This document shows, one piece after another, positions 25,478-37,020 of a stretch of DNA of 64,000 nucleotides. The translations under genes were made by a program, and so were the position numbers. The stretch comes from Escherichia coli. Its GTDB lineage: Bacteria > Pseudomonadota > Gammaproteobacteria > Enterobacterales > Enterobacteriaceae. The stretch lies in assembly GCF_003334255.1 (NCBI RefSeq), contig NZ_QOWU01000014.1; one strand, 5' to 3'. The notes under the pieces are model-generated. The model had not been told where the DNA came from. It was given only the letters and a program-made list of their open reading frames with translations, and did no database searches. Every line of letters starts with the position of its first letter. Position 1 is the stretch's first letter.

Positions 25478-26598
25478 TCGTTGCTTTTTGTTTATATAAA
25501 TATTTTCCCTTTGGCGGTTTGCAGCGCGATTTTATGCGTATTGCTCAGACAGTCGCCGCCCGAGGTCATCATGTTCGGGTTTATACCCAGTCGTGGGAAG
25601 GCGAATGCCCTGATGTATTTGAACTGATCAAAGTGCCGGTTAAATCGCATACCAATCACGGGCGCAATGCGGAGTATTTTACCTGGGTGCAAAAACATTT
25701 ACGCGAACATCCCGTCGATAAAGTCGTTGGATTCAACAAAATGCCGGGGCTGGACGTTTATTATGCCGCTGATGTTTGTTATGCCGAGAAAGTAGCGCAG
25801 GAGAAAGGCTTTTTCTATCGCCTGACGTCACGTTATCGCCATTATGCCGCCTTTGAGCGGGCAACCTTCGAACAGGGCAAGCCGACACAGCTGCTGATGC
25901 TGACAGATAAGCAAATCGCCGATTTCCAGAAACATTATCAGACTGAAGCGGAGCGTTTTCATATTCTGCCACCGGGGATTTATCCTGATCGTAAATATAG
26001 CCAGCAGCCAGCCAATAGCCGTGAAATCTTCCGTAAGAAGAATGGAATAACCGAACAACAATATTTATTGTTGCAGGTCGGTTCAGACTTCACGCGTAAA
26101 GGTGTCGATCGTTCCATTGAAGCACTTGCTTCTTTACCGGATTCGCTGCGCCACAACACATTGCTATATGTTGTTGGGCAGGATAAACCGCGAAAATTTG
26201 AGGCGCTGGCAGAAAAACGCGGCGTGCGCAGTAATGTTCACTTCTTCTCGGGGCGCAATGATGTCTCGGAATTAATGGCGGCGGCGGATTTATTACTGCA
26301 TCCTGCCTACCAGGAAGCGGCGGGAATTGTGCTGCTGGAAGCGATTACTGCAGGATTACCGGTACTAACAACAGCCGTTTGTGGCTATGCGCCTTATATT
26401 GTCGAGGCCAATTGCGGCGAGGCTATTGCTGAGCCATTCCGCCAGGAAACATTGAATGAGATTTTACGCAAAGCGTTAACGCAATCTTCATTGCGCCAGG
26501 CCTGGGCGGAAAATGCGCGACATTATGCTGATACACAAGATTTATACAGTCTGCCAGAGAAAGCGGCGGATATCATAACGGGTGGTCTGGATGGTTGA
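25474..26598 (+). CDS. waaG: LPS glucosyltransferase I (GT4)
   Basis: 374-aa ORF overlapping waaQ stop by 4 bp. Confidence 0.9.
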
Positions 26599-27388
26599 AC
26601 TTAAAGAGCCGTTTGCCACGTTATGGCGCGGTAAAGATCCTTTTGAGGAAGTTAAAACCTTGCAGGGTGAGATATTTCGTGAACTGGAAACTCGCCGTAC
26701 TCTGCGCTTTGAAATGGCGGGAAAAAGCTATTTTCTCAAATGGCATCGCGGCACGACCCTGAAAGAGATAATCAAAAATTTACTCTCATTGCGGATGCCA
26801 GTATTAGGCGCAGACCGCGAATGGAATGCGATTCATCGACTGCGGGATGTCGGCGTTGATACTATGTATGGGGTGGCATTCGGCGAAAAAGGCATGAATC
26901 CGCTGACCAGAACCTCGTTTATTATTACCGAAGATCTGACACCAACCATAAGTCTGGAAGATTACTGTGCTGACTGGGCGACCAACCCACCAGATGTTCG
27001 CGTAAAGCGTATGCTTATTAAGCGTGTCGCGACGATGGTGCGCGATATGCATGCTGCGGGCATTAATCACCGTGACTGTTATATCTGTCATTTCCTGCTG
27101 CACTTGCCTTTTTCCGGTAAGGAAGAGGAGTTAAAAATTTCGGTAATTGACCTGCACCGGGCGCAGCTTCGCACGCGCGTTCCACGTCGTTGGCGCGATA
27201 AAGATCTTATTGGACTTTATTTTTCTTCGATGAATATTGGCCTGACTCAGCGGGATATCTGGCGGTTTATGAAGGTGTATTTTGCCGCTCCGCTTAAAGA
27301 CATTCTCAAGCAGGAACAAGGACTGCTGTTGCAAGCAGAAGCAAAAGCCACAAAAATCAGGGAAAGAACGATTCGAAAATCGTTGTAA
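26591..27388 (+). CDS. waaP: LPS core heptose(I) kinase
   Basis: 265 aa from internal ATG ([21 protein letters not shown]). Confidence 0.9.
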
Positions 27389-27430
27389 CCCGTAACTTAT
27401 TTTTGCCAAAATTTTGGATACAGAATAAAT

Positions 27431-28438
27431 ATGTCTCAACTCAATGATAGTGACATCATCCTTTTTGAGTATAATTTTCATTATCAAAATATAAGATCTA
27501 AAAATACTCTTGATATAGCATTTGGTATTGACAGAAATTTTCTTTTTGGATGTGGTGTAGCCATCGCATCTATTCTATTAAACAATAGAGAAATCTCTTG
27601 TGAATTTCATGTTTTCACAGATTATATCAGTGATAAAGACAAATTATATTTTTCTGATTTAGCAAAACAATATAATTCAAGAATTAATATTTATGTTATC
27701 AATTGTGATAAGCTGAAGTCATTACCAAGCACGAAAAACTGGACTTACGCAACATATTTTCGATTTATAATTGCAGATTATTTCTATCATAAACATGAAA
27801 AAATACTATATCTTGATGCAGATATTGCTTGCAAGGGTAGTATTAAAGAACTCTTAGATTATCAATTTTCTACTAATGAAATTGCCGCAGTTGTAGCTGA
27901 AAGAGATGTTGAATGGTGGCAAAATCGAGCCTCGGTATTAACTACACCACAGTTAGCTTCTGGATATTTCAATGCTGGTTTTTTACTGATAAATATTGAT
28001 GAGTGGAATCTAAATAACATTTCGTCAAAAGCTATTGAAATGTTGCGTGACCCAGATTGGGTAAGTAAAATCACCCACCTTGATCAAGATGTACTGAATG
28101 TATTATTGAATGGTAAAGTGAAGTTTATTTCGGAGAAATATAATACCCGATATAGTATTAACTATGAATTAAAAGACAAAGTTGATAATCCAGTCAATGA
28201 TGACACCGTGTTTATACACTATGTGGGACCTACAAAACCCTGGCATGAGTGGGCTGACTATCCGGTGTCACGTAGTTTTTTGATCGCCAAAGCAGCTTCT
28301 CCGTGGAGTAAAGAAGATTTACTTAAACCTGTAAATAGCAATCAGTATCGGTATTGTGCAAAACATAAATTTAAACAAAAGCATTATATGGCAGGCATTT
28401 TTAATTATTTAAAGTATTATAAAGAAAAATGCTTCTAA
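27431..28438 (+). CDS. waaI: GT8-family outer-core glycosyltransferase (WaaI-like)
   Basis: 335 aa with GT8 DxD motif YLDADIACKGSI; position after waaP fits the R3 gene order; AT-rich. Confidence 0.7.
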   Translation: MSQLNDSDIILFEYNFHYQNIRSKNTLDIAFGIDRNFLFGCGVAIASILLNNREISCEFHVFTDYISDKDKLYFSDLAKQYNSRINIYVINCDKLKSLPSTKNWTYATYFRFIIADYFYHKHEKILYLDADIACKGSIKELLDYQFSTNEIAAVVAERDVEWWQNRASVLTTPQLASGYFNAGFLLINIDEWNLNNISSKAIEMLRDPDWVSKITHLDQDVLNVLLNGKVKFISEKYNTRYSINYELKDKVDNPVNDDTVFIHYVGPTKPWHEWADYPVSRSFLIAKAASPWSKEDLLKPVNSNQYRYCAKHKFKQKHYMAGIFNYLKYYKEKCF

Positions 28439-28463
28439 AGATTTAAGGTTAAAATAATTCATT

Positions 28464-29171
28464 ATGATATATAATAAAACGATAAATGGGTTGAAAGTTT
28501 TCATAAAAGATAATGATCCCTTTTATGAGCAAGTTCTAAATGACTTTTTAACTTGCAGGGTTAAAACATTAAAAGTTTTTCGTTCTATTGATGATACTAA
28601 AGTCATTCTTATTGACACTGCTCGTGGACCTCTTGTACTTAAAGTTTATGCGCCAAAGCATAAAATGACCGAACGTTTCTTAAAATCTTGCATAAAAAAA
28701 GATTATTATGAAAATTTAATTTATCAAACCGATCGGGTACGTGGTGAAGGCATCCAATCAATTAATGACTATTTTTTGCTAGCTGAACGTAAAACATTAA
28801 ATTTCGCTCATTATTATATTATGCTCATTGAGTATATTGAAGGTGTCGGGTTAAATGAGTATTTGGAAATTTCTGAAGATCTGAAGGATCAATTATCAGA
28901 ATCGATAAAAGAGTTGCATCAGCATGGAATGGTGTCTGGCGATCCTCATAAAGGAAATTTTATAGTATCCGAAAAAGGTTTAAGACTAATTGACCTTTCA
29001 GGTAAAAAAACAACCGCTGTTTTAAAAGCAAAAGATCGCATTGATCTTGAACGGCACTATAATATAAAAAATGAATTGAAAGACTTTGGCTATACATATC
29101 TTATATTCAAAAAGAAAATTAAAAAAGTAATCAGGGATGTAAAAGTCAAACTAGGATTGAAGAGCAAATAA
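28464..29171 (+). CDS. waaY: LPS core heptose(II) kinase
   Basis: 235-aa kinase-like ORF (LVLKVY...HGMVSGDPHKGNF) between the two GT8 genes. Confidence 0.75.
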   Translation: MIYNKTINGLKVFIKDNDPFYEQVLNDFLTCRVKTLKVFRSIDDTKVILIDTARGPLVLKVYAPKHKMTERFLKSCIKKDYYENLIYQTDRVRGEGIQSINDYFLLAERKTLNFAHYYIMLIEYIEGVGLNEYLEISEDLKDQLSESIKELHQHGMVSGDPHKGNFIVSEKGLRLIDLSGKKTTAVLKAKDRIDLERHYNIKNELKDFGYTYLIFKKKIKKVIRDVKVKLGLKSK

Positions 29172-29195
29172 TGATTATGATGAAGGGTAATTAAA

Positions 29196-30209
29196 TTGGA
29201 TTTTAAACATCTTACTCAATTTAAAGATATAATTGAACTGGACAAGCGCCCCGTTAAACTTGATGAACGGGAAACGTTTAATGTCTCATGGGGTATTGAT
29301 GAGAACTACCAGGTTGGGGCTGCGATTTCAATTGCTTCAATTCTTGAAAATAATAAACAAAACAAATTTACCTTTCACATAATCGCTGATTACTTAGACA
29401 AAGAGTATATTGAATTATTATCACAATTAGCAACGAAGTATCAAACAGTAATTAAATTATATCATATTGATTCTGAGCCATTGAAGGCGCTACCTCAATC
29501 AAATATCTGGCCAGTATCTATTTATTATCGTTTGCTTTCATTTGATTATTTTTCTGCGCGATTGGATTCATTATTATATCTTGATGCTGATATCGTCTGT
29601 AAGGGTTCATTGAACGAGTTAATAGCATTAGAGTTTAAAGATGAATATGGGGCAGTGGTAATTGATGTAGATGCTATGCAAAGTAAAAGCGCTGAGCGTT
29701 TGTGTAATGAGGATTTTAACGGTAGCTATTTTAACTCTGGTGTAATGTATATTAATTTACGGGAATGGTTAAAACAAAGACTAACGGAAAAATTCTTTGA
29801 TCTATTATCAGATGAGTCAATTATAAAAAAATTAAAGTACCCGGATCAAGATATTTTAAACTTAATGTTTCTACATCATGCTAAAATATTACCGAGAAAA
29901 TATAATTGTATTTATACTATAAAGTCAGAATTTGAAGAAAAAAATAGTGAATATTACACCCGGTTTATTAATGATGACACTGTCTTCATACATTATACTG
30001 GTATAACTAAGCCATGGCATGATTGGGCGAACTACGCCTCTGCAGATTATTTTCGTAATATTTATAATATATCACCATGGAGAAATATACCTTATAAAAA
30101 AGCTGTTAAAAAACATGAGTACAAAGAAAAATATAAACACTTGCTTTACCAGAAAAAATTTCTCGATGGTGTTTTTACAGCAATTAAATATAATGTTATG
30201 AAAGGTTAA
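29196..30209 (+). CDS. waaJ: GT8-family outer-core glycosyltransferase (WaaJ-like)
   Basis: 337 aa with GT8 motif YLDADIVCKGSL; paralogous to the 27431-28438 ORF. Confidence 0.7.
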   Translation: MDFKHLTQFKDIIELDKRPVKLDERETFNVSWGIDENYQVGAAISIASILENNKQNKFTFHIIADYLDKEYIELLSQLATKYQTVIKLYHIDSEPLKALPQSNIWPVSIYYRLLSFDYFSARLDSLLYLDADIVCKGSLNELIALEFKDEYGAVVIDVDAMQSKSAERLCNEDFNGSYFNSGVMYINLREWLKQRLTEKFFDLLSDESIIKKLKYPDQDILNLMFLHHAKILPRKYNCIYTIKSEFEEKNSEYYTRFINDDTVFIHYTGITKPWHDWANYASADYFRNIYNISPWRNIPYKKAVKKHEYKEKYKHLLYQKKFLDGVFTAIKYNVMKG

Positions 30210-30217
30210 TATACGAG

Positions 30218-31360
30218 ATGGTTGATAAAATAATATTTACGGTTACTCCTATTTTTTCAATTCCTCCTCGCGGAGCGGCTGCTGTTGAAACGTGGATGTA
30301 TCAGGTTGCTCAGCGTACCAATTTTCCAAATCGTATTGTTTGTATCAAAAATCCAGGATACTCAAATTACACCTTTGTTAATGATAATTGTAGTATTCAT
30401 AGGGTTGGATTCAGTCGCATATATAAGCGGTTATTTCAAAAATGGACAAGACTTGATCCTCTTCCATATTCACAGAGAATATTGAATATTGCACATGATT
30501 TTCCTATAACGAAAGAAAGTGTTATTGTAGTTCATAATAGCATGAAGCTATACACTCAAATTCGTAAGCGAGCTCCTCAGGCAAGAGTGGTTATACATAT
30601 GCATAATGCATTTGAACCAAAATTGCTTGAGCAAAATGTTAAAATGATAGTGCCTAGTTTATACTTGAAAAAGTATTACCAATCTTATTTAGCAAATGCA
30701 GATATTGAGATTGTACCAAATGGAATTGATTTAGAAACCTATCAATCTAATTTTCAGCCGATCACTAGAAGCGAACTTAATATCTCCCCTGAAGAGAAAA
30801 TTATTTTTTATGCTGGGCGTATCGTCCCTGACAAAGGCATATTGCTGTTGATGCAATCATTCGAAAAATTGGCCGCTGCTCACAAAAATTTAAAATTAGT
30901 TGTGATTGGTGATTATACAGAAATGAGTAAAAGTGACAAAGGTGCATATCAACGCAATGTCAGGGAAATTGCAAAACGTTTGAAGGATCGTTGCATTATG
31001 TTAGGAAGCATACCGCCTGAAAAGATGCATTGTTATTACCCACTGGCAGATTTAGTCGTCATTCCTTCCCAGTTCCAGGAACCATTTTGCATGGTGGCAA
31101 TTGAAGCTATGGGTGCTGGTAAGCCTGTTTTAGTGAGTACGCGTGGGGGGATGACGGAATTTGTCAAAGAAAATACTACGGGATTCCATTTAAAAGAACC
31201 TATGACTGCAGACTCCATAAGCAGCGATATTTTAAAAACGTTAGCGAATCCTGAATTAACAGCAGTTGCAAAGCAAGGTCAGGACTTTGTGTTTGATCAC
31301 TACAGTTGGGATGGCGTAACTCAAAGATTCGAAGAGGTTATTCATAATTGGTTTGAATAA
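30218..31360 (+). CDS. waaD: GT4-family glycosyltransferase (WaaD-like, R3 outer core)
   Basis: 380 aa with retaining-GT4 C-terminal motif (FQEPFCMVAIEAMGAGKPV); last gene of the waaQ operon before convergent waaL. Confidence 0.65.
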   Translation: MVDKIIFTVTPIFSIPPRGAAAVETWMYQVAQRTNFPNRIVCIKNPGYSNYTFVNDNCSIHRVGFSRIYKRLFQKWTRLDPLPYSQRILNIAHDFPITKESVIVVHNSMKLYTQIRKRAPQARVVIHMHNAFEPKLLEQNVKMIVPSLYLKKYYQSYLANADIEIVPNGIDLETYQSNFQPITRSELNISPEEKIIFYAGRIVPDKGILLLMQSFEKLAAAHKNLKLVVIGDYTEMSKSDKGAYQRNVREIAKRLKDRCIMLGSIPPEKMHCYYPLADLVVIPSQFQEPFCMVAIEAMGAGKPVLVSTRGGMTEFVKENTTGFHLKEPMTADSISSDILKTLANPELTAVAKQGQDFVFDHYSWDGVTQRFEEVIHNWFE

Positions 31361-31362
31361 AT

Positions 31363-31395
31363 AAAAAGGCCGCATTATGCAGCCTTTTTTATTTT
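31363..31395. terminator. bidirectional rho-independent terminator between waaD and waaL
   Basis: AAAAAGGC...GCCTTTTTT perfect stem with A-run on one side and T-run on the other. Confidence 0.8.
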
Positions 31396-32604
31396 TTACT
31401 TGTTTTTCATCGCTAATAATAAGCCGGCGTAAACGCCTAATAAATTTGGTTCAATTTGTTCTACGTTTCCACGGATAACAAAATAACCTATAAAAGATAG
31501 TAAGATTATATAATATGCATTATATGGTGAGCGATATTTATTCTTGACGCCATTTTTTATACACTCTTTCAATATTGCACAGTATAGCATCATAAGACTT
31601 ACCAGCCCTAATAAACCAGTGCCAAACCAGATGAATAGCGCAAAATTATGTGGCCCTATTGATTGTCTAAAGGTCCATTCTGGATAATCAATGACACGTT
31701 TATTATAGACATCTTTATATGCAACGTTACCGTAACCATAACCAATAACAGGATTTTCTAATATTAGATCGAGTGCGCTGCCTTGAGTACCATTTGCATA
31801 GCGATAAGAACTATTAGTTTGTTGAAGTTTATACGTTAGCTTTGCGGTCATCTCCTTATGTGTGAAAATAACCGACAATGCAATGATGGCAACCATTACT
31901 CCTACTAATAGTAACTTCCATTGTTTAAACATCAGAATCCATATTAATCCAATGACTAACACGGAAAGCCAGGCCCCTCTGGATAAAGTTCCTAATATCA
32001 GAAAAATAAAAATAACGCTTAGAACCACAAAAGAAATGCGGTATTTTGCTGATTTGATAAGCCAGAGATTTAACAATGCAGGGAATAAAAAGACCATCGA
32101 GTCAGAAATGCTACGGTGTCTATAATCTGCGAATGGCATTATCCCTTGTTGATAGTCCTTATAATAGGTAATCAATTCAGAAAAACAGCGTAAGCCCAAC
32201 GCACTAATAAATGAGAAGAAAACGATTTTTTCGACATCTTCTCTTTTCTCGTCTCTCAATATGATCGGTATTGCTATTGTGCATAGTAAAGTATTCTCAA
32301 TAATAGCTTTGAAAATTTCCTTCATGCTAGCACCTGCATCAGGGGATTGAAGAAGTGACAGCAATGCAGCAATAGTTAATATGGCAACACTACCAAAAAG
32401 AAATGTTTTAAATAGTGAGAGATAGTGTTTTGGCCGTTTGCAGAGATAGACGATTGTCGTTATTGTCATAAGAATAACAATAAGATGTTTATACCTTGTA
32501 ATCCCACCCAAAAAATAGGTGGTAATGAATAAGAATACGAGAGCTCTGTTCCAGTACGCTATCCAGTTTTTTTTCTCGAGAGAGAAAAATAATGTTGAGG
32601 TCAT
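31396..32604 (-). CDS. waaL: O-antigen ligase
   Basis: 402-aa polytopic membrane protein downstream of waaC in the hldD-waaF-waaC operon; AT-rich. Confidence 0.8.
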   Translation of the reverse strand: MTSTLFFSLEKKNWIAYWNRALVFLFITTYFLGGITRYKHLIVILMTITTIVYLCKRPKHYLSLFKTFLFGSVAILTIAALLSLLQSPDAGASMKEIFKAIIENTLLCTIAIPIILRDEKREDVEKIVFFSFISALGLRCFSELITYYKDYQQGIMPFADYRHRSISDSMVFLFPALLNLWLIKSAKYRISFVVLSVIFIFLILGTLSRGAWLSVLVIGLIWILMFKQWKLLLVGVMVAIIALSVIFTHKEMTAKLTYKLQQTNSSYRYANGTQGSALDLILENPVIGYGYGNVAYKDVYNKRVIDYPEWTFRQSIGPHNFALFIWFGTGLLGLVSLMMLYCAILKECIKNGVKNKYRSPYNAYYIILLSFIGYFVIRGNVEQIEPNLLGVYAGLLLAMKNK

Positions 32605-33593
32605 CTTATCTCCGATGTCAACTTATTGGTTATTATTTCAAGATTTAAATTTTGAAAAACGGTTTGAGCTGGCAAATCTGCAAGAGACATACTTGTAGAA
32701 CGACACTCTACTTGATTCTTCCCATACCCACCAATTAATCCCGGATCGGTTGGTCCATAAACCGTGATATTGGGTCTATCCAGTGCCGCCGTTAAATGGC
32801 TTAACCCCGTATCCACCGACACTACAAATTTAGCCCCGGCCAGCACGCGGGCAACGCCTTCCAGACTCATCTTCGGCAATACTTCAACATAAGCAAATCC
32901 TTCCGCCAGTCGTTTCGCCCGTTCTTCCTCATGCGGCGCGCCCCACGGAAGTTTAATCCGTATTCCTGAATCAGCCAGTAAACCAATCAATTCTCGCCAG
33001 TGTTCTTCCGGCCAGTGTTTATCATCACGGGTCGTCGCATGAAGAAATACGGCATATTCGCCAGCATCTGTAGGCAGGTTCGTCAGAAAATGCTGTGCGA
33101 TAGCATAATCGCCCTGGGTTTGCGGTTTGCTATAGCCCAAACTTTTGGCAAACAGTTCGCGGGTGCGTTCTACGGCGTGCTGCTGTTTTGCAATATGATG
33201 CTTACGATTGTAAAACAGGCTGGCTAAAGGTTCGCGAGCGGTTTGCCAGTCCATGCCATGCTTTACGCCATGCGCCAGACGCGTCACCAGCGCCGCGCTT
33301 TTTACCAGCCCCTGAGCGTCGATAACTGCGTCATAGTTCTCTGCTTGTAGCGCTTCACGAAACGCTTTGCGTTCCGCTTTTATGGGGGCCGAGAACCAGG
33401 CTTTACGCCAGCGACGTATTGCCACAGGAATAACTCGCTCAACGGCAGCGTGCCAGGAAGGAATCTGTGCGAACCCTTCTTCCACCACCCAGTCAAACTT
33501 AATCCCTGGGATTGCCTGCTGGGCATCAGTGAGTGCGGGCAACGTATGGAGAACATCGCCCATCGACGATGTTTTAACGATCAAAACCCGCAT
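32601..33593 (-). CDS. waaC: LPS heptosyltransferase I (GT9)
   Basis: 330 aa MRVLIVKTSSMGDVLHTLPAL; stop overlaps waaL start. Confidence 0.9.
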   Translation of the reverse strand: MRVLIVKTSSMGDVLHTLPALTDAQQAIPGIKFDWVVEEGFAQIPSWHAAVERVIPVAIRRWRKAWFSAPIKAERKAFREALQAENYDAVIDAQGLVKSAALVTRLAHGVKHGMDWQTAREPLASLFYNRKHHIAKQQHAVERTRELFAKSLGYSKPQTQGDYAIAQHFLTNLPTDAGEYAVFLHATTRDDKHWPEEHWRELIGLLADSGIRIKLPWGAPHEEERAKRLAEGFAYVEVLPKMSLEGVARVLAGAKFVVSVDTGLSHLTAALDRPNITVYGPTDPGLIGGYGKNQVECRSTSMSLADLPAQTVFQNLNLEIITNKLTSEIR

Positions 33594-33596
33594 CCG

Positions 33597-34643
33597 TCAG
33601 GCTTCCTCTTGTAACAATAGCGCGTTGAGTTCTTCCAGTACGCGCTGGGGAGTAATGTCGATTAAGCTCTGGTGATAACCCTCCGCAGCGTCACCTTTAC
33701 GCACTTTGTGATAGCCGGTAATCAAACGGATCACGCGCGCTTTATGGGATAGCGGCGGTGTGAAGTCCGGGCTACTCGGACCATACAGGGCAACCAGCGG
33801 ACGATTGAGCGCCGCCGCAACATGCATCAGGCCAGAATCGTTAGTGACAATGGCTTTACAGGCTGCAATCAGGATAACCGCTTGATCAAGCTGTGTTTCC
33901 CCCGCCAGGTTCCGACACCATGCCTGCTGCTCGGTATTCAAAGCGGCAAGAATCTCATTGCCCGCTTCATGATCTTTCGCCGAGCCAAACAGAACCACCT
34001 GATAACCTTCATCAATCAGCTGCTTTGCCAGCTCCGCATAGTGGTAGTGTGGCCAGCGTTTTGCCGGACCAAACTCCGCACCCGGGCAAAAACCAATCAT
34101 CGGACGTTCTGATGAAAGCGAAAATTGATTACAGGTATATGATTTTTCACCTTCGCTCACCTGCAACTGCGGCCATAACAATGGCTGCGGCAGATCTTGT
34201 GCTGTGCGCATAATGCCTTTGTCATAGGCCAGCGCTATATAGCGTTCCACCATTAGCGGCCAGGCTTCTTTATCGAGCACGCGTACATCGTTGAGTAAAC
34301 CGTAGCGCATCTCGCCGCGCCAGCCGGTGCGATGAGGAATACCCGCGAAGAAAGGCACTAATGCAGATTTGAAGGAGTTGGGTAAGACGTAGGCGCGGTC
34401 GTAGCGCTTTTCACGCAGGCTATGACCCAGTTTGCGGCGTTCGCCGATTTCCAGCGCTCCGTGACCGAGAGGCATAGGAATAGCTTCGTTAACTTCCGGC
34501 ATCCGCGATAATAATGGACGGCACCATGCCGGTGCCATCACATCGATTATCGCCTGGGGATAGCGCGCCTGGAGCGTGCGATAGAGACTTTGCGACATCA
34601 TCATGTCGCCAACCCAAGACGGGCCGATCACCAGTATTTTCAT
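33597..34643 (-). CDS. waaF: LPS heptosyltransferase II (GT9)
   Basis: 348 aa MKILVIGPSWVGDMMMSQSLYRTL. Confidence 0.92.
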   Translation of the reverse strand: MKILVIGPSWVGDMMMSQSLYRTLQARYPQAIIDVMAPAWCRPLLSRMPEVNEAIPMPLGHGALEIGERRKLGHSLREKRYDRAYVLPNSFKSALVPFFAGIPHRTGWRGEMRYGLLNDVRVLDKEAWPLMVERYIALAYDKGIMRTAQDLPQPLLWPQLQVSEGEKSYTCNQFSLSSERPMIGFCPGAEFGPAKRWPHYHYAELAKQLIDEGYQVVLFGSAKDHEAGNEILAALNTEQQAWCRNLAGETQLDQAVILIAACKAIVTNDSGLMHVAAALNRPLVALYGPSSPDFTPPLSHKARVIRLITGYHKVRKGDAAEGYHQSLIDITPQRVLEELNALLLQEEA

Positions 34644-34652
34644 GCAGAGCTC

Positions 34653-35585
34653 TTATGCGTCGCGATTCAGCCAGGCCATGTATTCCGTTACACCTTCAGC
34701 AACGGTTTTGAACGGTTTGTCGTAACCCGCCGCGCGCAGATTCGTCAGATCTGCCTGAGTGAACGCCTGATAGCGGCCTTTCAGTTTATCCGGGAACGGA
34801 ATGTATTCGATCTGGCCTTTCTTGTGATAAGCCAGCGTAGCATCAGCTACCGCCTGGAAGGATTCCGCACGACCAGTACCGAGATTGAAGATGCCGGAAA
34901 CGCCATTTTCCAGGAACCACAGATTCACATCAGCCACGTCGCCCACATAGACGAAGTCGCGTTTGAAGTTCTCGCTACCTTCAAACAGCTTCGGTGATTC
35001 ACCGTTGTTAAGCTGGGTGTTGAGATGGAAAGCGACGCTCGCCATGCTGCCTTTATGGCCTTCACGCGGTCCATAAACGTTGAAATAACGGAAGCCAACA
35101 ATCTGCGAGTTCGCTTCAGGCAGGATTTGACGAACATATTCATCAAACAGGAATTTTGAGTAACCGTAGACGTTCAACGGTTTTTCGTACTCGCGGGATT
35201 CAATAAAGTCGGAGGTGCGTCCGCCGTAGGTGGCTGCGGAAGAAGCGTACAGGAACGGGATTTCACGCTCCAGGCAGTAGTGCAGCAGCTCCTTGGAGTA
35301 TTGATAGTTGTTATCCATCATATACTTGCCGTCCCACTCGGTGGTGGAAGAGCACGCGCCTTCGTGGAAAATCGCTTCGACATCGCCGAACTCTTCGCCA
35401 GCCATAATCTGGATCAGGAAGTCTTCCTTATCCATATAGTCTGCGATATTCAGATCCACCAGGTTCACAAACTTGGTGCCGTCTTTCAGGTTGTCCACCA
35501 CCAGAATATCGGTGATGCCTTTATCATTCAGGGCTTTAACGATGTTGCTGCCGATAAAGCCCGCGCCGCCGGTAACGATGATCAT
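34653..35585 (-). CDS. hldD: ADP-L-glycero-D-manno-heptose 6-epimerase
   Basis: 310 aa [23 protein letters not shown] (Rossmann GxGxxG). Confidence 0.93.
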
Positions 35586-35873
35586 AACTGTAACCTTCGA
35601 ATTATGGAGTCAGAGACAATCTCAGACACGAATGTCTGTAATCATACCATCACATCCGAATCCCTTCAGCCCTTTACATAGAGGTGCAAGGATGCTAATT
35701 GCAACAAACTAGTTTGGGTTTTAGCTAGTCCTTCATGGCGGATGTTGGTTTTGCATGTGAATAGTGCTTTAGTATCAATATTCCGATGTATGATAAATAA
35801 CGGAAGCATTTGAATGGATAATATACAGTATACATTCTATTAATATTTATGATATAATTCTTTTTTTATATTA

Positions 35874-36746
35874 ATGGTCTTATTAGTAATGAAATCATCC
35901 ACCACAATTATCACTGCATATTTTGACATTGGTAGAGGGGATTGGACTGCTAATAAAGGGTTCCGTGAAAAACTAGCTCGTTCAGTTGATGTTTATTTTA
36001 GTTACTTTGAGCGTCTGGCCGCACTTGAAAATGAGATGATTATTTTCACTTCTCCCGATTTGAAACCAAGGGTTGAAGCGATTCGCAACGGAAAACCAAC
36101 AACGGTTATCGTTATCGATATAAAAAAGAAATTTAGATATATCAGAAGTCGTATCGAAAAAATTCAAAAAGATGAGTCGTTTACAAATAGACTTGAGCCT
36201 CGACAATTAAAAAACCCAGAGTACTGGTCACCAGAGTATGTTTTGGTATGTAACCTTAAGGCCTATTTTGTAAATAAAGCTATCAACATGGGCTTAGTGA
36301 AAACGCCTCTTGTTGCGTGGATAGATTTTGGCTATTGCCGTAAGCCAAATGTAACTCGAGGATTGAAAATTTGGGATTTCCCATTTGATGAAAGTAAGAT
36401 GCATCTTTTCACTATAAAAAAAGGGCTTACTGTCACATCTCAACAACAGGTTTTTGATTTCATGATTGGCAATCATGTATATATTATTGGGGGCGCAATT
36501 GTTGGTTCACAGCATAAATGGAAAGAATTCTATAAATTAGTTCTGGAAAGTCAAAAAATAACACTAAATAATAACATTGTGGACGATGACCAGGGCATTT
36601 TTGTCATGTGCTATTACAAACGCCCCGATCTCTTCAACCTAAACTATCTGGGGAGAGGAAAATGGTTCGATTTGTTTCGCTGCTTCAGGAGTAACACTTT
36701 AGGGGCAAAAATGCAGGCGCTGAGAATTTTCCTTTCAAGAAAATAG
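35874..36746 (+). CDS. htrL: HtrL (YibB) family protein
   Basis: 290-aa AT-rich ORF between hldD and kbl; alternative start at 35889 gives 285 aa. Confidence 0.75.
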   Translation: MVLLVMKSSTTIITAYFDIGRGDWTANKGFREKLARSVDVYFSYFERLAALENEMIIFTSPDLKPRVEAIRNGKPTTVIVIDIKKKFRYIRSRIEKIQKDESFTNRLEPRQLKNPEYWSPEYVLVCNLKAYFVNKAINMGLVKTPLVAWIDFGYCRKPNVTRGLKIWDFPFDESKMHLFTIKKGLTVTSQQQVFDFMIGNHVYIIGGAIVGSQHKWKEFYKLVLESQKITLNNNIVDDDQGIFVMCYYKRPDLFNLNYLGRGKWFDLFRCFRSNTLGAKMQALRIFLSRK

Positions 36747-37020
36747 GTTTCCCTCCATTAGTGGGTAGCGTTTTGATACCAACTGAGATAGGAAAAATGA
36801 TGCTTTGGCATCATTTTTTCTTTTTATATCAATGCAGTAAAATCAATCATCATTATGCCCAGCCAAAACTGTACAGTTTTTCTACTATCTGTAGGTGTTG
36901 AGAGACATCAAGTTACACGTTATTTATCCTGAATTTTGCAGAAGTGTTAACGCGTTATCTCGTCGCGACCTATAAGTTTGGGTAATATGTGCTGGAATTT
37001 GCCCTGTCTGGAGAATCGCA

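Follow-up and report, generated by a model that had tools for sequence, protein, structure and literature searches.

The right-hand edge of the Escherichia coli R3 core-type block lies inside waaC

Results

A mosaic junction inside waaC

On its right-hand side, the E. coli core-type block ends between nucleotides 881 and 882 of waaC, a position that we mapped to a single nucleotide in the window (the whole 64,000-nt stretch of E. coli DNA analyzed here). The R3 block in this window (27389–32712) thus comprises waaI, waaY, waaJ, waaD, and waaL, together with the 36 3′-terminal codons of waaC. It is very likely, in our view, that two things account for the whole arrangement: an ordinary mosaic junction left by the exchange of cassettes through homologous recombination and, separately, the lack of earlier stop codons, which gave the R3 WaaC protein its 330 residues.

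As judged from its sequence, the window holds the R3-type LPS core (waa) locus of E. coli in a K-12-like chromosomal background. The gene order (waaQ-G-P-I-Y-J-D with a convergent waaL-C-F-hldD) is that of R3, as is the allele of waaL, the gene that serves as the marker when core types are assigned in silico (PMC8715443). On its other side, the block is bounded by the stop codon of waaP (26591–27388, plus strand): matches to non-R3 genomes stop at 27388, and some stop at 27284. The remainder of the R3-specific block (27389–31395, plus) carries waaI (annotated as waaO; 27431–28438), waaY (28464–29171), waaJ (29196–30209), and waaD (30218–31360), all on the plus strand. On the minus strand follows waaL (31396–32604; 402 aa), encoding the R3-type O-antigen ligase, which scored 692.7 bits against NF012031 (RfaL; cutoff 277). 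This gene shows no differences from that of O157:H7 SS17. Its product is 51% identical to R2 WaaL; no BLASTP match to the K-12, R1, or R4 WaaL was found at E < 1e-5, and the identities in global alignments were 20–23%. Between the convergent waaL and waaD, 3′ of waaL, lies a terminator-like hairpin (31363–31389, minus), which is named as such from a consensus match only. The genes of the block have GC contents of 0.31–0.37, and no mobile-element remnants were seen at the locus. Upstream of waaC, in the hldD-waaF-waaC-waaL operon, are the conserved genes waaF (33597–34643, minus) and hldD/rfaD (34653–35585, minus).

In the list of open reading frames, waaC occupies 32601–33593 on the minus strand and encodes 330 aa. 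The product passes the curated cutoff of the RfaC equivalog model (NCBIfam NF008204; 634.5 bits, cutoff 437) and scored 431.8 bits against TIGR02193 (cutoff 185.3). Since residues 1–294 are 99–100% identical to those of characterized E. coli WaaC, the protein is predicted to transfer heptose I from ADP-heptose to Kdo2-lipid A.

The gene divides into two parts. A conserved body (32713–33593; codons 1–294, nt 1–881) is common to all E. coli core types, and an R3-specific tail (32601–32712; codons 295–330 plus the stop codon) belongs to the low-GC, exchangeable block. Base 32713 (gene nt 881) is the last that all types have in common, and type-specific sequence begins with 32712, within a junction interval of 32710–32715. 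Three kinds of alignment place the break here: in a five-type DNA alignment, the sequences match up to nt 881 and diverge from nt 882; the ends of the blastn HSPs agree with this position; and the megablast matches of the non-R3 genomes that were sampled end at 32713 or 32710 (query positions 1318 or 1315). Over its 881 nt, the body is 96.5–100% identical across all five core types, with no differences from K-12 and 0.7–3.5% from R1, R4, and R2. The 112-nt R3 tail, on the other hand, has no blastn match in K-12, R1, or R4, and in R2 only a match that is 42% divergent; so sharp a change is not a chance effect.

A sequence-only reading of this DNA had proposed that the 3′ end of waaC may be the boundary of the core-type cassette. 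The boundary is indeed there, but its edge is not at the stop codon: it lies 112 nt inside waaC, directly after codon Q294. The interval 32601–32700, which had been described as adjoining the variable block, is wholly within it; the break, at 32712/32713, lies 12 nt past the end of that interval. We examined the idea of a cassette boundary exactly at the waaC stop and waaL start, with all of waaC as conserved flank, on its own merits. The gene junction at 32601–32604 is a natural landmark, and the opposite edge of the block does fall at a stop codon (that of waaP, 27388). However, homology with non-R3 genomes ends 109–112 nt upstream of the waaC stop codon, and the tail has a block-like GC content (0.34) and is limited to the 1364 R3 genomes described below. 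These observations refute a boundary at the stop codon, which we therefore regard as extremely improbable.

We made the alignment of WaaC C-termini that the earlier reading had suggested. Among the K-12, R1, R2, R3, and R4 proteins, residues 1–294 are 99–100% identical, whereupon identity falls abruptly to 28–50%. Q294 is also the last invariant residue among enterobacterial WaaC proteins. The tails are divergent and of unequal length (K-12, 319 aa; R1, 326; R2, 318; R3, 330; R4, 319), so the C-termini are not of the conserved, equal-length kind that would speak against a core-type boundary in this region.

The step in divergence at the junction is not confined to the protein. The body has a GC content of 0.526 and the tail one of 0.342, and a GC profile falls from 0.53 (32750–32849) to 0.33 (32600–32699), with the drop near 32700. 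Synonymous divergence between R3 and the other E. coli types is 0.005–0.16 in the body and 1.3–2.0 (i.e., saturated) in the tail. Divergence that rises abruptly at a fixed position, at synonymous sites and in the nucleotide sequence as a whole, is what a mosaic junction is expected to show. The dN/dS ratios are 0.02–0.06 for the body and 0.16–0.77 for the tail, the latter being noisy because they come from 22 codons. Because the ratio is 5–10 times higher in the tail, an effect of constraint on the position of the break is possible: the break position common to all five types could partly mark the end of protein constraint rather than a fixed crossover site.

These data bear on another account of the tail, namely that its differences arose by drift of a dispensable C-terminus within E. 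coli, under relaxed constraint and with no recombination boundary. The higher dN/dS of the tail is what such drift would produce. Family-wide, too, residues 291–320 are among the less conserved blocks, residues 321–330 are mostly gaps, and many phmmer alignments of distant homologs stop near residues 290–300. But synonymous sites jump at the same nucleotide, and GC content falls there to the level of the block. Moreover, the R3 tail is closer to the tails of other genera than to other E. coli tails and tracks WaaL, and it does not vary between lineages that are 1–2% apart in their flanks (see below). We thus consider drift very improbable and retain the mosaic junction as the preferred reading.

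Two further ideas on the break were considered and rejected. Chi sites do not explain the fixed break: GCTGGTGG occurs nine times in the window, but never between 23297 and 52843. A SNP at 32720, which seemed to offer a crossover marker within 8 nt of the junction, proved to be a K292E substitution of the O157 lineage. As the next SNP is at 33273, the crossover interval is not narrowed by SNPs.

Linkage of the tail to the R3 block

We surveyed 5426 complete E. coli genomes, using RefSeq loci as representatives of the core types. The waaC body and waaF were matched in 5424 of them; in 1364, the match continued into the R3 tail and waaL. The R3 tail itself was found in 1364 of the 5426, the combination of tail, waaL, and waaF in 1364, and the segment from waaQ to waaD in 1364, each of them complete; the linkage of tail and block rests on these equal counts and on sampled rows. 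In 1355 of the 1364, the tail matches that of the window at 99% or more of its nucleotides. Together, the five tail types cover 5406 of approximately 5424 genomes. One natural exception to the intact types is the recombinant O157:H7 TR01, where the waaC body and waaF are K-12-like and the tail is a chimera (R1-like proximally and R3-like distally). A divergent R3 genome, LR-58-2 (H10), shows 2% divergence, evenly spread, and has an identical tail; it is uninformative on the junction.

The breakpoint evidence consists of pairwise SNP maps. The window is colinear with O157:H7 SS17 over 18,977 nt (99.26% identity). Within the block (27389–32712), only 4 SNPs separate the two in 5324 nt (0.08%); all four are in the 4007 nt of 27389–31395, and none occurs in 29180–32719. 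The flanks differ by 0.6–2.6%. The comparison with K-12 gives the converse: the flank (waaC body plus waaF) has no differences from the window, and the block is completely different. Both comparisons speak for a recent lateral spread of the block.

Relatives of the R3 block occur in other genera. Atlantibacter hermannii, Leclercia pneumoniae, Citrobacter enshiensis, and a Logan contig (L007) have an R3-like gene order, and they share with the window the VECRS...L(A/T)(D/N)L...(T/A)VF tail and the ribosome-binding site (RBS) and start position of waaL. Their WaaL proteins are 65–70% identical to R3 WaaL; in the two loci in which the comparison was made, A. hermannii and L007, WaaD is 73–74% and WaaJ 70–74% identical. 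The R3 tail has 50–68% amino-acid identity to the tails of these four, compared with 28–46% to other E. coli tails. These loci differ from the window in the position of the waaC stop (WaaC of 320, 325, or 330 aa), and A. hermannii further differs in having no waaY and in the higher GC content of its block (0.41–0.48). Since protein identity is only 65–74%, these loci are not the direct donor of the R3 block. In Mantel tests, the similarity of the tails correlates with that of WaaL (r = 0.76, p = 0.0002) but not with that of the WaaC body (r = 0.007, p = 0.45). Thus, the O157 and K-12 comparisons and the Mantel tests all reveal the discordance of block and flank that characterizes a mosaic junction.

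Length of WaaC and its overlap with waaL

The R3 WaaC was correctly noted in the earlier reading to be some ten residues longer than that of K-12: K-12 rfaC (L001) has 960 nt and encodes 319 aa, a difference of 11. Also borne out was the overlap of the waaC stop with the waaL start codon. The plus strand reads 'tcat' at 32601–32604, and the coding strand is therefore ATGA, in which the TGA of waaC and the ATG of waaL share 4 nt (minus strand). The RefSeq/PGAP annotations of other R3 genomes (L008, L012, L014) contain the same 330-aa waaC, 402-aa waaL, and 4-nt overlap.

Neither feature is evidence for the boundary, as had been supposed; both arose separately and locally, because the frame has no stop codon at the earlier positions. 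Codons 321–330 (32604–32633, minus) form an R3-only C-terminal extension, where the waaC frame continues into sequence that, in the relatives, lies between the two genes and contains the RBS. These residues lie beyond the NF008204 profile (the match covers residues 1–320; the profile has 322 positions), and of 132 family representatives, 70% are gapped at these positions. The TAG stop codon of A. hermannii waaC aligns with an R3 TTG codon at 32619–32621. Among the R3-like loci, the distance from the waaC start to the start of waaL and its GGAG RBS is nearly constant; it is the waaC stop that varies in position. R3 waaC lacks the earlier stops (TAA in Leclercia and C. enshiensis, TAG in Atlantibacter), so that its frame crosses the RBS; the read-through adds about ten poorly structured residues. 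The absence of the relatives' stop codons from the R3 frame is thus the reason why WaaC has 330 residues and why its gene overlaps waaL.

The GGAG at 32610–32613 (minus), 5 nt 5′ of the ATG and within waaC codons 327–328, is the putative Shine-Dalgarno sequence of waaL; the motif cGGAGAaAAG-ATG is kept in R3, A. hermannii, L007, Leclercia, and C. enshiensis. The two genes accordingly form an ATGA-type pair, with a same-strand 4-nt stop/start overlap and an SD-like GGAG inside the upstream ORF. From the overlap and the position of the Shine-Dalgarno sequence alone, translation of waaL is probably coupled to that of waaC in R3. A promoter scan near the junction yielded three sigma-70-like sites, compared with 6.1 in shuffled sequence, and thus gave no indication of an internal waaL promoter, although this is weak evidence.

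Could the 330-aa ORF be an artifact, with a sequencing error, frameshift, or miscalled stop obscuring a true end near residue 319? The extension does fall outside the RfaC profile and has a low pLDDT (below). Yet 1355 independent complete genomes out of the 1364 have nearly the same tail DNA, which refutes this notion. PGAP calls the identical 330-aa CDS, the frame is continuous and homologous to those of the relatives up to their stops, and L007, an independent lineage, also has a 330-aa WaaC that overlaps waaL. We therefore give this explanation practically no credence.

Structure of WaaC and the role of the tail

An AlphaFold (AF2) model of R3 WaaC, calculated from a 148-sequence alignment, had a pLDDT of 95.4; an earlier run on 19 sequences (pLDDT 55) was discarded. 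In the model, the tail is the last β-strand (residues 294–298) and the C-terminal helix (309–329), and residues 321–330 have a pLDDT of 57. A phmmer comparison of R3 WaaC with 2GT1 gave E = 2.5e-204. The model superposes on 6DFE_B with TM-scores of 0.96 (query-normalized) and 0.98 (target-normalized) and an rmsd of 1.2 Å over 324 columns, as befits the GT-B fold. The crystal structures of E. coli WaaC (2GT1, 2H1F, 2H1H, and 6DFE; 326 aa) have an R1-type tail. They are ~99% identical to the window's protein over residues 1–294, and their GT-B fold includes the terminal strand and helix seen in the R3 model; in contrast, the tails are only 31% identical, and the R3 protein is 4 residues longer. 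The fold is thus conserved across tail types.

A further possibility is that the tail is a co-adapted, core-type-specific module, acting through contacts with WaaL or other Waa proteins or through the level of waaL translation, and that selection keeps the linkage. Tail type covaries with WaaL type even between genera; the R3 tail holds the putative waaL RBS and overlaps the waaL start; and the tail has a defined structure and shows some purifying selection. To our knowledge, however, the donor (ADP-heptose) and acceptor (Kdo2-lipid A) of WaaC are identical in all core types, and adjacency by itself accounts for the linkage. Coupling of waaL to waaC is impossible in R1 and R4, where waaL is convergent. 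The natural R1/R3 chimeric tail of O157:H7 TR01 and the low model confidence of the R3 extension also argue against co-adaptation, which we deem distinctly improbable. There is a slight chance that the WaaC strand and helix, or the R3 RBS read-through, tunes WaaL expression or mediates core-assembly contacts, with selection maintaining the linkage across genera. Under the preferred reading, a mosaic junction created by cassette exchange, tail type is presumably neutral with respect to function.

Discussion

We infer that core types have been swapped between lineages by homologous recombination. Crossovers would occur in two conserved arms: the left-hand one consists of waaQ-G-P, and the right-hand one of the waaC body, waaF, and hldD. 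The arm on the waaC side ends right behind the Q294 codon; beyond it, each block supplies its own version of the last β-strand and C-terminal helix of WaaC. The tail versions are homologous but anciently diverged, having kept the fold under weaker constraint.

Exchange of cassettes through conserved flanks also occurs at the O-antigen clusters between galF and gnd. Like other exchanged polysaccharide cassettes, the window has a low-GC variable block between flanks of core GC, and the phylogenies of block and flank are decoupled. The window also shares the arrangement of the R3 waa locus of O157:H7, O111, O104:H4, and others, in which waaQGP-I-Y-J-D meets a convergent hldD-waaF-waaC-waaL. It differs from the O157:H7 locus in that its flanks are K-12-like (the waaC body and waaF match K-12 throughout) and lie 0.8–2.6% from those of O157, and so the R3 block sits in a different chromosomal background. 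The drop in GC content and the exchange of the central waa region by homologous recombination have been published (PMC8715443). What distinguishes the present case from published waa exchange is a junction mapped to the nucleotide, inside a conserved, housekeeping-like gene. Our literature search found the general recombination-transfer model (PMC8715443) but nothing on the waaC C-terminus or the junction; the primary papers of 1998–2004 (Heinrichs et al. 1998 and related) were outside its coverage.

The locus and the general model of its exchange are well known, and the junction is a fine detail that will not surprise a specialist; it is mainly housekeeping knowledge. Nonetheless, Atlantibacter, Leclercia, and Citrobacter have R3-like and R4-like blocks, and this qualifies the published claim that the central region has no homolog outside Escherichia and Shigella. 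The position of the junction is of use in designing primers and typing schemes and in choosing homology arms for core-type swaps, and it is relevant to inhibitor and structural work on WaaC, which was carried out on the R1-type protein. Because the junction is inside waaC, WaaC is a mosaic protein, in which a body common to the whole species is combined with a C-terminus that is specific to each block. Its last 24–36 residues are a reliable marker of core type, and the tail types explain why the length of WaaC varies between strains (318 to 330 aa).

Gene content of the locus

In the window, hldD (34653-35585), waaF (33597-34643), waaC (32601-33593) and waaL (31396-32604), all taken from the ORF list, form one operon on the minus strand, with a terminator-like hairpin 3' of waaL (31389-31363). 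The waaC product (330 aa) was identified as RfaC (NCBIfam NF008204, 634.5 bits vs. a cutoff of 437), the profile match covering residues 1-320 only, and the waaL product (402 aa) as RfaL (NF012031, 692.7 bits vs. a cutoff of 277). The genes waaY, waaJ and waaD are convergent with the waaL operon and are preceded by waaQ, waaG, waaP and waaI. This is the R3 core-type arrangement, colinear with that of O157:H7 SS17 (99.26% identity over 18,977 nt). The window shares with K-12 and O157:H7 a low-GC yibB (htrL) segment (35634-36916) between hldD and kbl. The loci of R1, R2 and R4 type (L002-L004) do not have it, hldD and kbl being direct neighbours there, so that the segment is a presence/absence polymorphism adjoining the waa locus.

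The core-type boundary lies within waaC

The sequence-only reading had proposed the 3' end of waaC as the recombination boundary of the core cassette. When 31396-34643 was used as a megablast query against 5426 complete E. coli genomes, 5424 matched, but full-length coverage was found in only 1364. Among the matches listed, all those from non-R3 genomes start at query position 1318 or 1315, i.e., at window 32713 or 32710. One representative locus per core type was then aligned with the window: K-12 (L001, with waaZ and waaU), R4 (L002, with a GT25 waaX and with waaL on the other strand), R2 (L003, with waaZ and waaK) and R1 (L004, with a GT2 waaV). WaaC residues 1-294 are 99-100% identical in all five types, and the proteins diverge directly past GYGKNQ; correspondingly, the DNA is common up to waaC nt 881 and different from nt 882 on. 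In each of the five types the GC content is 0.52-0.53 over nt 1-882, and it is 0.31-0.40 in the tails, and the window's own profile steps from 0.53 to 0.33 near 32700. The homology break and the GC step therefore place the core-type boundary within waaC, 112 nt ahead of its stop. The proposed boundary was thus supported, except that it sits inside the gene rather than at its end; the interval in question, 32601-32700, falls completely on the variable side. Aligned across core types, the C-termini are neither conserved nor of equal length (K-12 and R4, 319 aa; R2, 318; R1, 326; R3, 330).

Might the step simply reflect relaxed constraint at the end of the protein? The dN/dS ratio does rise, from 0.02-0.06 in codons 1-294 to 0.16-0.77 in codons 295-316 (a tail sample of just 22 codons), and the relaxation is a real effect. 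As the sole cause, it is ruled out by a 10- to 100-fold synonymous jump and the change in base composition: synonymous divergence of R3 from the remaining E. coli types (Nei-Gojobori) is 0.005-0.16 over codons 1-294 and 1.3-2.0, i.e., saturated, over codons 295-316. The step in waaC thus records a different history, beyond a floppy C-terminus.

The tail belongs to the R3 block

Searched alone, the 112-nt R3 tail has a match in exactly 1364 genomes (at least 99% identity in 1355 of them), the same count as obtained with the complete waaL-waaC-waaF query and with a complete waaQ-to-waaD query. On the far side, matches from most non-R3 genomes end at 27388, the waaP stop, and in some about 105 nt earlier, at 27284. 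The R3-specific block is therefore 27389-32712. The window's waaQ-G-P had no megablast match in 951 of the 5426 genomes, and this arm is therefore less conserved than that of waaC, waaF and hldD.

Tail-only searches with the other types retrieved 1030 (K-12), 692 (R4), 485 (R2) and 1835 (R1) genomes. Together with R3, these classes account for 5406 of about 5424 genomes and therefore cover nearly the whole species sample. About 19 genomes with the waaC body were unmatched by the five tail queries, and two lacked a waaC and waaF match; the unmatched genomes may have novel tails, IS disruptions or deletions. R1-type WaaC itself varies, with forms of 326 aa (...EENAEKAAMI) and 323 aa (...EENTTMI or ...EENAAMI; compare L004:3401-3500 with L013:18204-19175, a further locus), and the 326-aa-type query was less than 80% covered in 85 of the 1835 R1-tail genomes.

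Probable recombinational exchange of the block

The window and SS17, an R3 strain of a different lineage, differ at four positions in the 5324-nt block, with none between 29180 and 32719; the arms of these two genomes diverge by 0.57-2.6% on the waaQ/waaG/waaP side and by 0.79-1.93% across hldD, waaF and the body of waaC. The comparison with K-12 gives the opposite result: the waaC body and waaF show no differences and only two occur in 5431 nt overall, yet the block is unrelated. The near-identity of the block with SS17 and of the arms with K-12 shows that the window carries an O157-like R3 block in a K-12-like background. Cassette replacement through homologous recombination would be expected to leave this pattern; for the central waa region such exchange has been proposed from its GC content and from the absence of traces of mobile elements (PMC8715443).

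A second strain, O157:H7 TR01, points to a crossover within the tail itself. Its waaC (NZ_CP033605.1, L014:3001-3993, corresponding to window 32601-33593) encodes ...GYGKNQ-MVCRAPGNELSQLTA-KTVFQNLNLEIITNKLTSEIR, an R1-type proximal tail followed by an R3-type distal tail; nt 882 to about 929 are R1-type (MVCRAPGNELSQLTA) and the remainder R3-type, with a few bases of microhomology at the join. In its waaC body and waaF, TR01 matches the window and K-12 exactly, and not SS17.

Several other features of the region were recorded. Within the conserved GYGKNQ motif, SS17 carries K292E (AAG to GAG; window 32720, waaC codon 292), a position occupied by M in Leclercia and R in C. enshiensis. Chi (GCTGGTGG) occurs nine times in the whole window vs. 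1.7 expected, with none from 23297 to 52843, an interval that holds the entire waa locus. NZ_CP070033.1 (FDAARGOS_1337, 9822 bp), classed as a plasmid, opens on a 338-nt piece of waaC whose sole annotation is "glycosyltransferase family 9 protein"; the record is probably a part of the chromosome that was left unplaced.

The waa genes and the R3 locus are already established, as is the view that the low-GC central region is exchanged by recombination, and the waaC junction is an ordinary mosaic junction in this known system. In the literature searched, whose scope did not extend to the primary papers of 1998-2004, there is no description of a junction inside waaC or of core-type-specific WaaC tails; the observation follows, however, from aligning any of the published loci.

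Predicted structure of the tail

An AlphaFold model of the window's WaaC (148 sequences; pLDDT 95.4, pTM 0.92) assigns residues 294-298 to a beta-strand and 309-329 to a helix. Mean pLDDT values by block are 96, 97 and 87 across residues 291-320, and 57 for 321-330. Superposed on crystal structures of R1-type WaaC, the model aligns across 324 columns (TM 0.96 and 0.98, rmsd 1.2 Å); the fold is thus retained although the R3 and R1 tails share only 31% identity. In an alignment of 19 sequences, Q294 is the last invariant residue, and C297 and L304 are almost invariant. Across the family, the blocks spanning residues 291-320 rank among those of lower conservation, and 70% of representatives have gaps at 321-330. 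That the break falls at Q294 in every type is probably due to the drop in constraint there: the strongly constrained GPTDPGLIGGYGKNQ segment would keep DNA identity sufficient for crossovers, and the weakly constrained tail would not. Functional co-adaptation of the tail to core type is unlikely, because WaaC substrates are common to all core types and the chimeric tail of TR01 is viable.

WaaC length and the waaL overlap

Two further claims of the sequence-only reading held: WaaC is longer than that of K-12 by 11 residues (330 vs. 319 aa for rfaC; about 10 had been claimed), and its stop overlaps the waaL start, the plus-strand "tcat" at 32601-32604 reading ATGA in the coding sense, with 4 nt shared. 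The PGAP annotation of other genomes contains identical 330-aa and 402-aa CDSs with an equal overlap. Counted in waaC nt, the waaL ATG is at 984-996 in R3, R2 and four R3-like loci of other genera, and cGGAGAaAAG is conserved ahead of it in R3 and the R3-like loci. The waaC stop is a TAA at nt 963 in Leclercia and C. enshiensis and a TAG at nt 978 in Atlantibacter hermannii; in R3 and L007 (a Logan contig) it falls at nt 993. The 25 nt 5' of the waaL ATG align ungapped between A. hermannii and R3 (20/25 identical), and the A. hermannii TAG aligns with an R3 TTG (window 32619-32621); the R3 frame thus runs on through the waaL ribosome-binding site (TCG GAG ATA AGA TGA) to end on the waaL start. 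The extra R3 residues are a by-product of where the stop codon falls in a weakly constrained spacer. In R3, waaL translation may plausibly be coupled to that of waaC; the two genes are separated by 9 nt in K-12 and 38 nt in R2, and coupling is impossible in R1 and R4 because waaL is convergent there.

R3-like and R4-like blocks in other genera

A protein search retrieved homologues of WaaC in other Enterobacteriaceae (82-87% identity), with tails variable in sequence and length. One ENA metagenome contig (P0003) encodes a WaaC that resembles that of E. coli as far as about residue 205, then diverges and ends in a non-E. coli tail; recombination or chimeric assembly may account for it. The WaaC entries P0001, P0002, P0061 and P0088 have internal indels or frameshift-like stretches. 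Tails resembling that of R3, VECRS..L(A/T)(D/N)L...(T/A)VF, occur in A. hermannii (L005/L006), Leclercia pneumoniae (L009), Citrobacter enshiensis (L010) and L007 (ERR11010859), and all of these loci have the R3 gene order. Relative to the window, their WaaL proteins are 65-70% identical, WaaD 73-74% and WaaJ 70-74% (both measured for A. hermannii and L007), and WaaY 72% (measured for L007). The C. amalonaticus locus (L011) is R4-like, its WaaL 63% identical to that of R4.

Over ten loci, tail identity correlated with that of WaaL (Mantel r=0.76, p=0.0002) but not with that of the WaaC body (r=0.007, p=0.45). Identity of the R3 tail to the R3-like tails of other genera is 50-68%, vs. only 28-46% to other E. 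coli tails. Together, the Mantel results and these identities indicate that the tail classes are old and move between genera with the outer-core block. The central region has been described as having no homologue elsewhere (PMC8715443); the R3-like and R4-like blocks outside Escherichia and Shigella qualify that statement.
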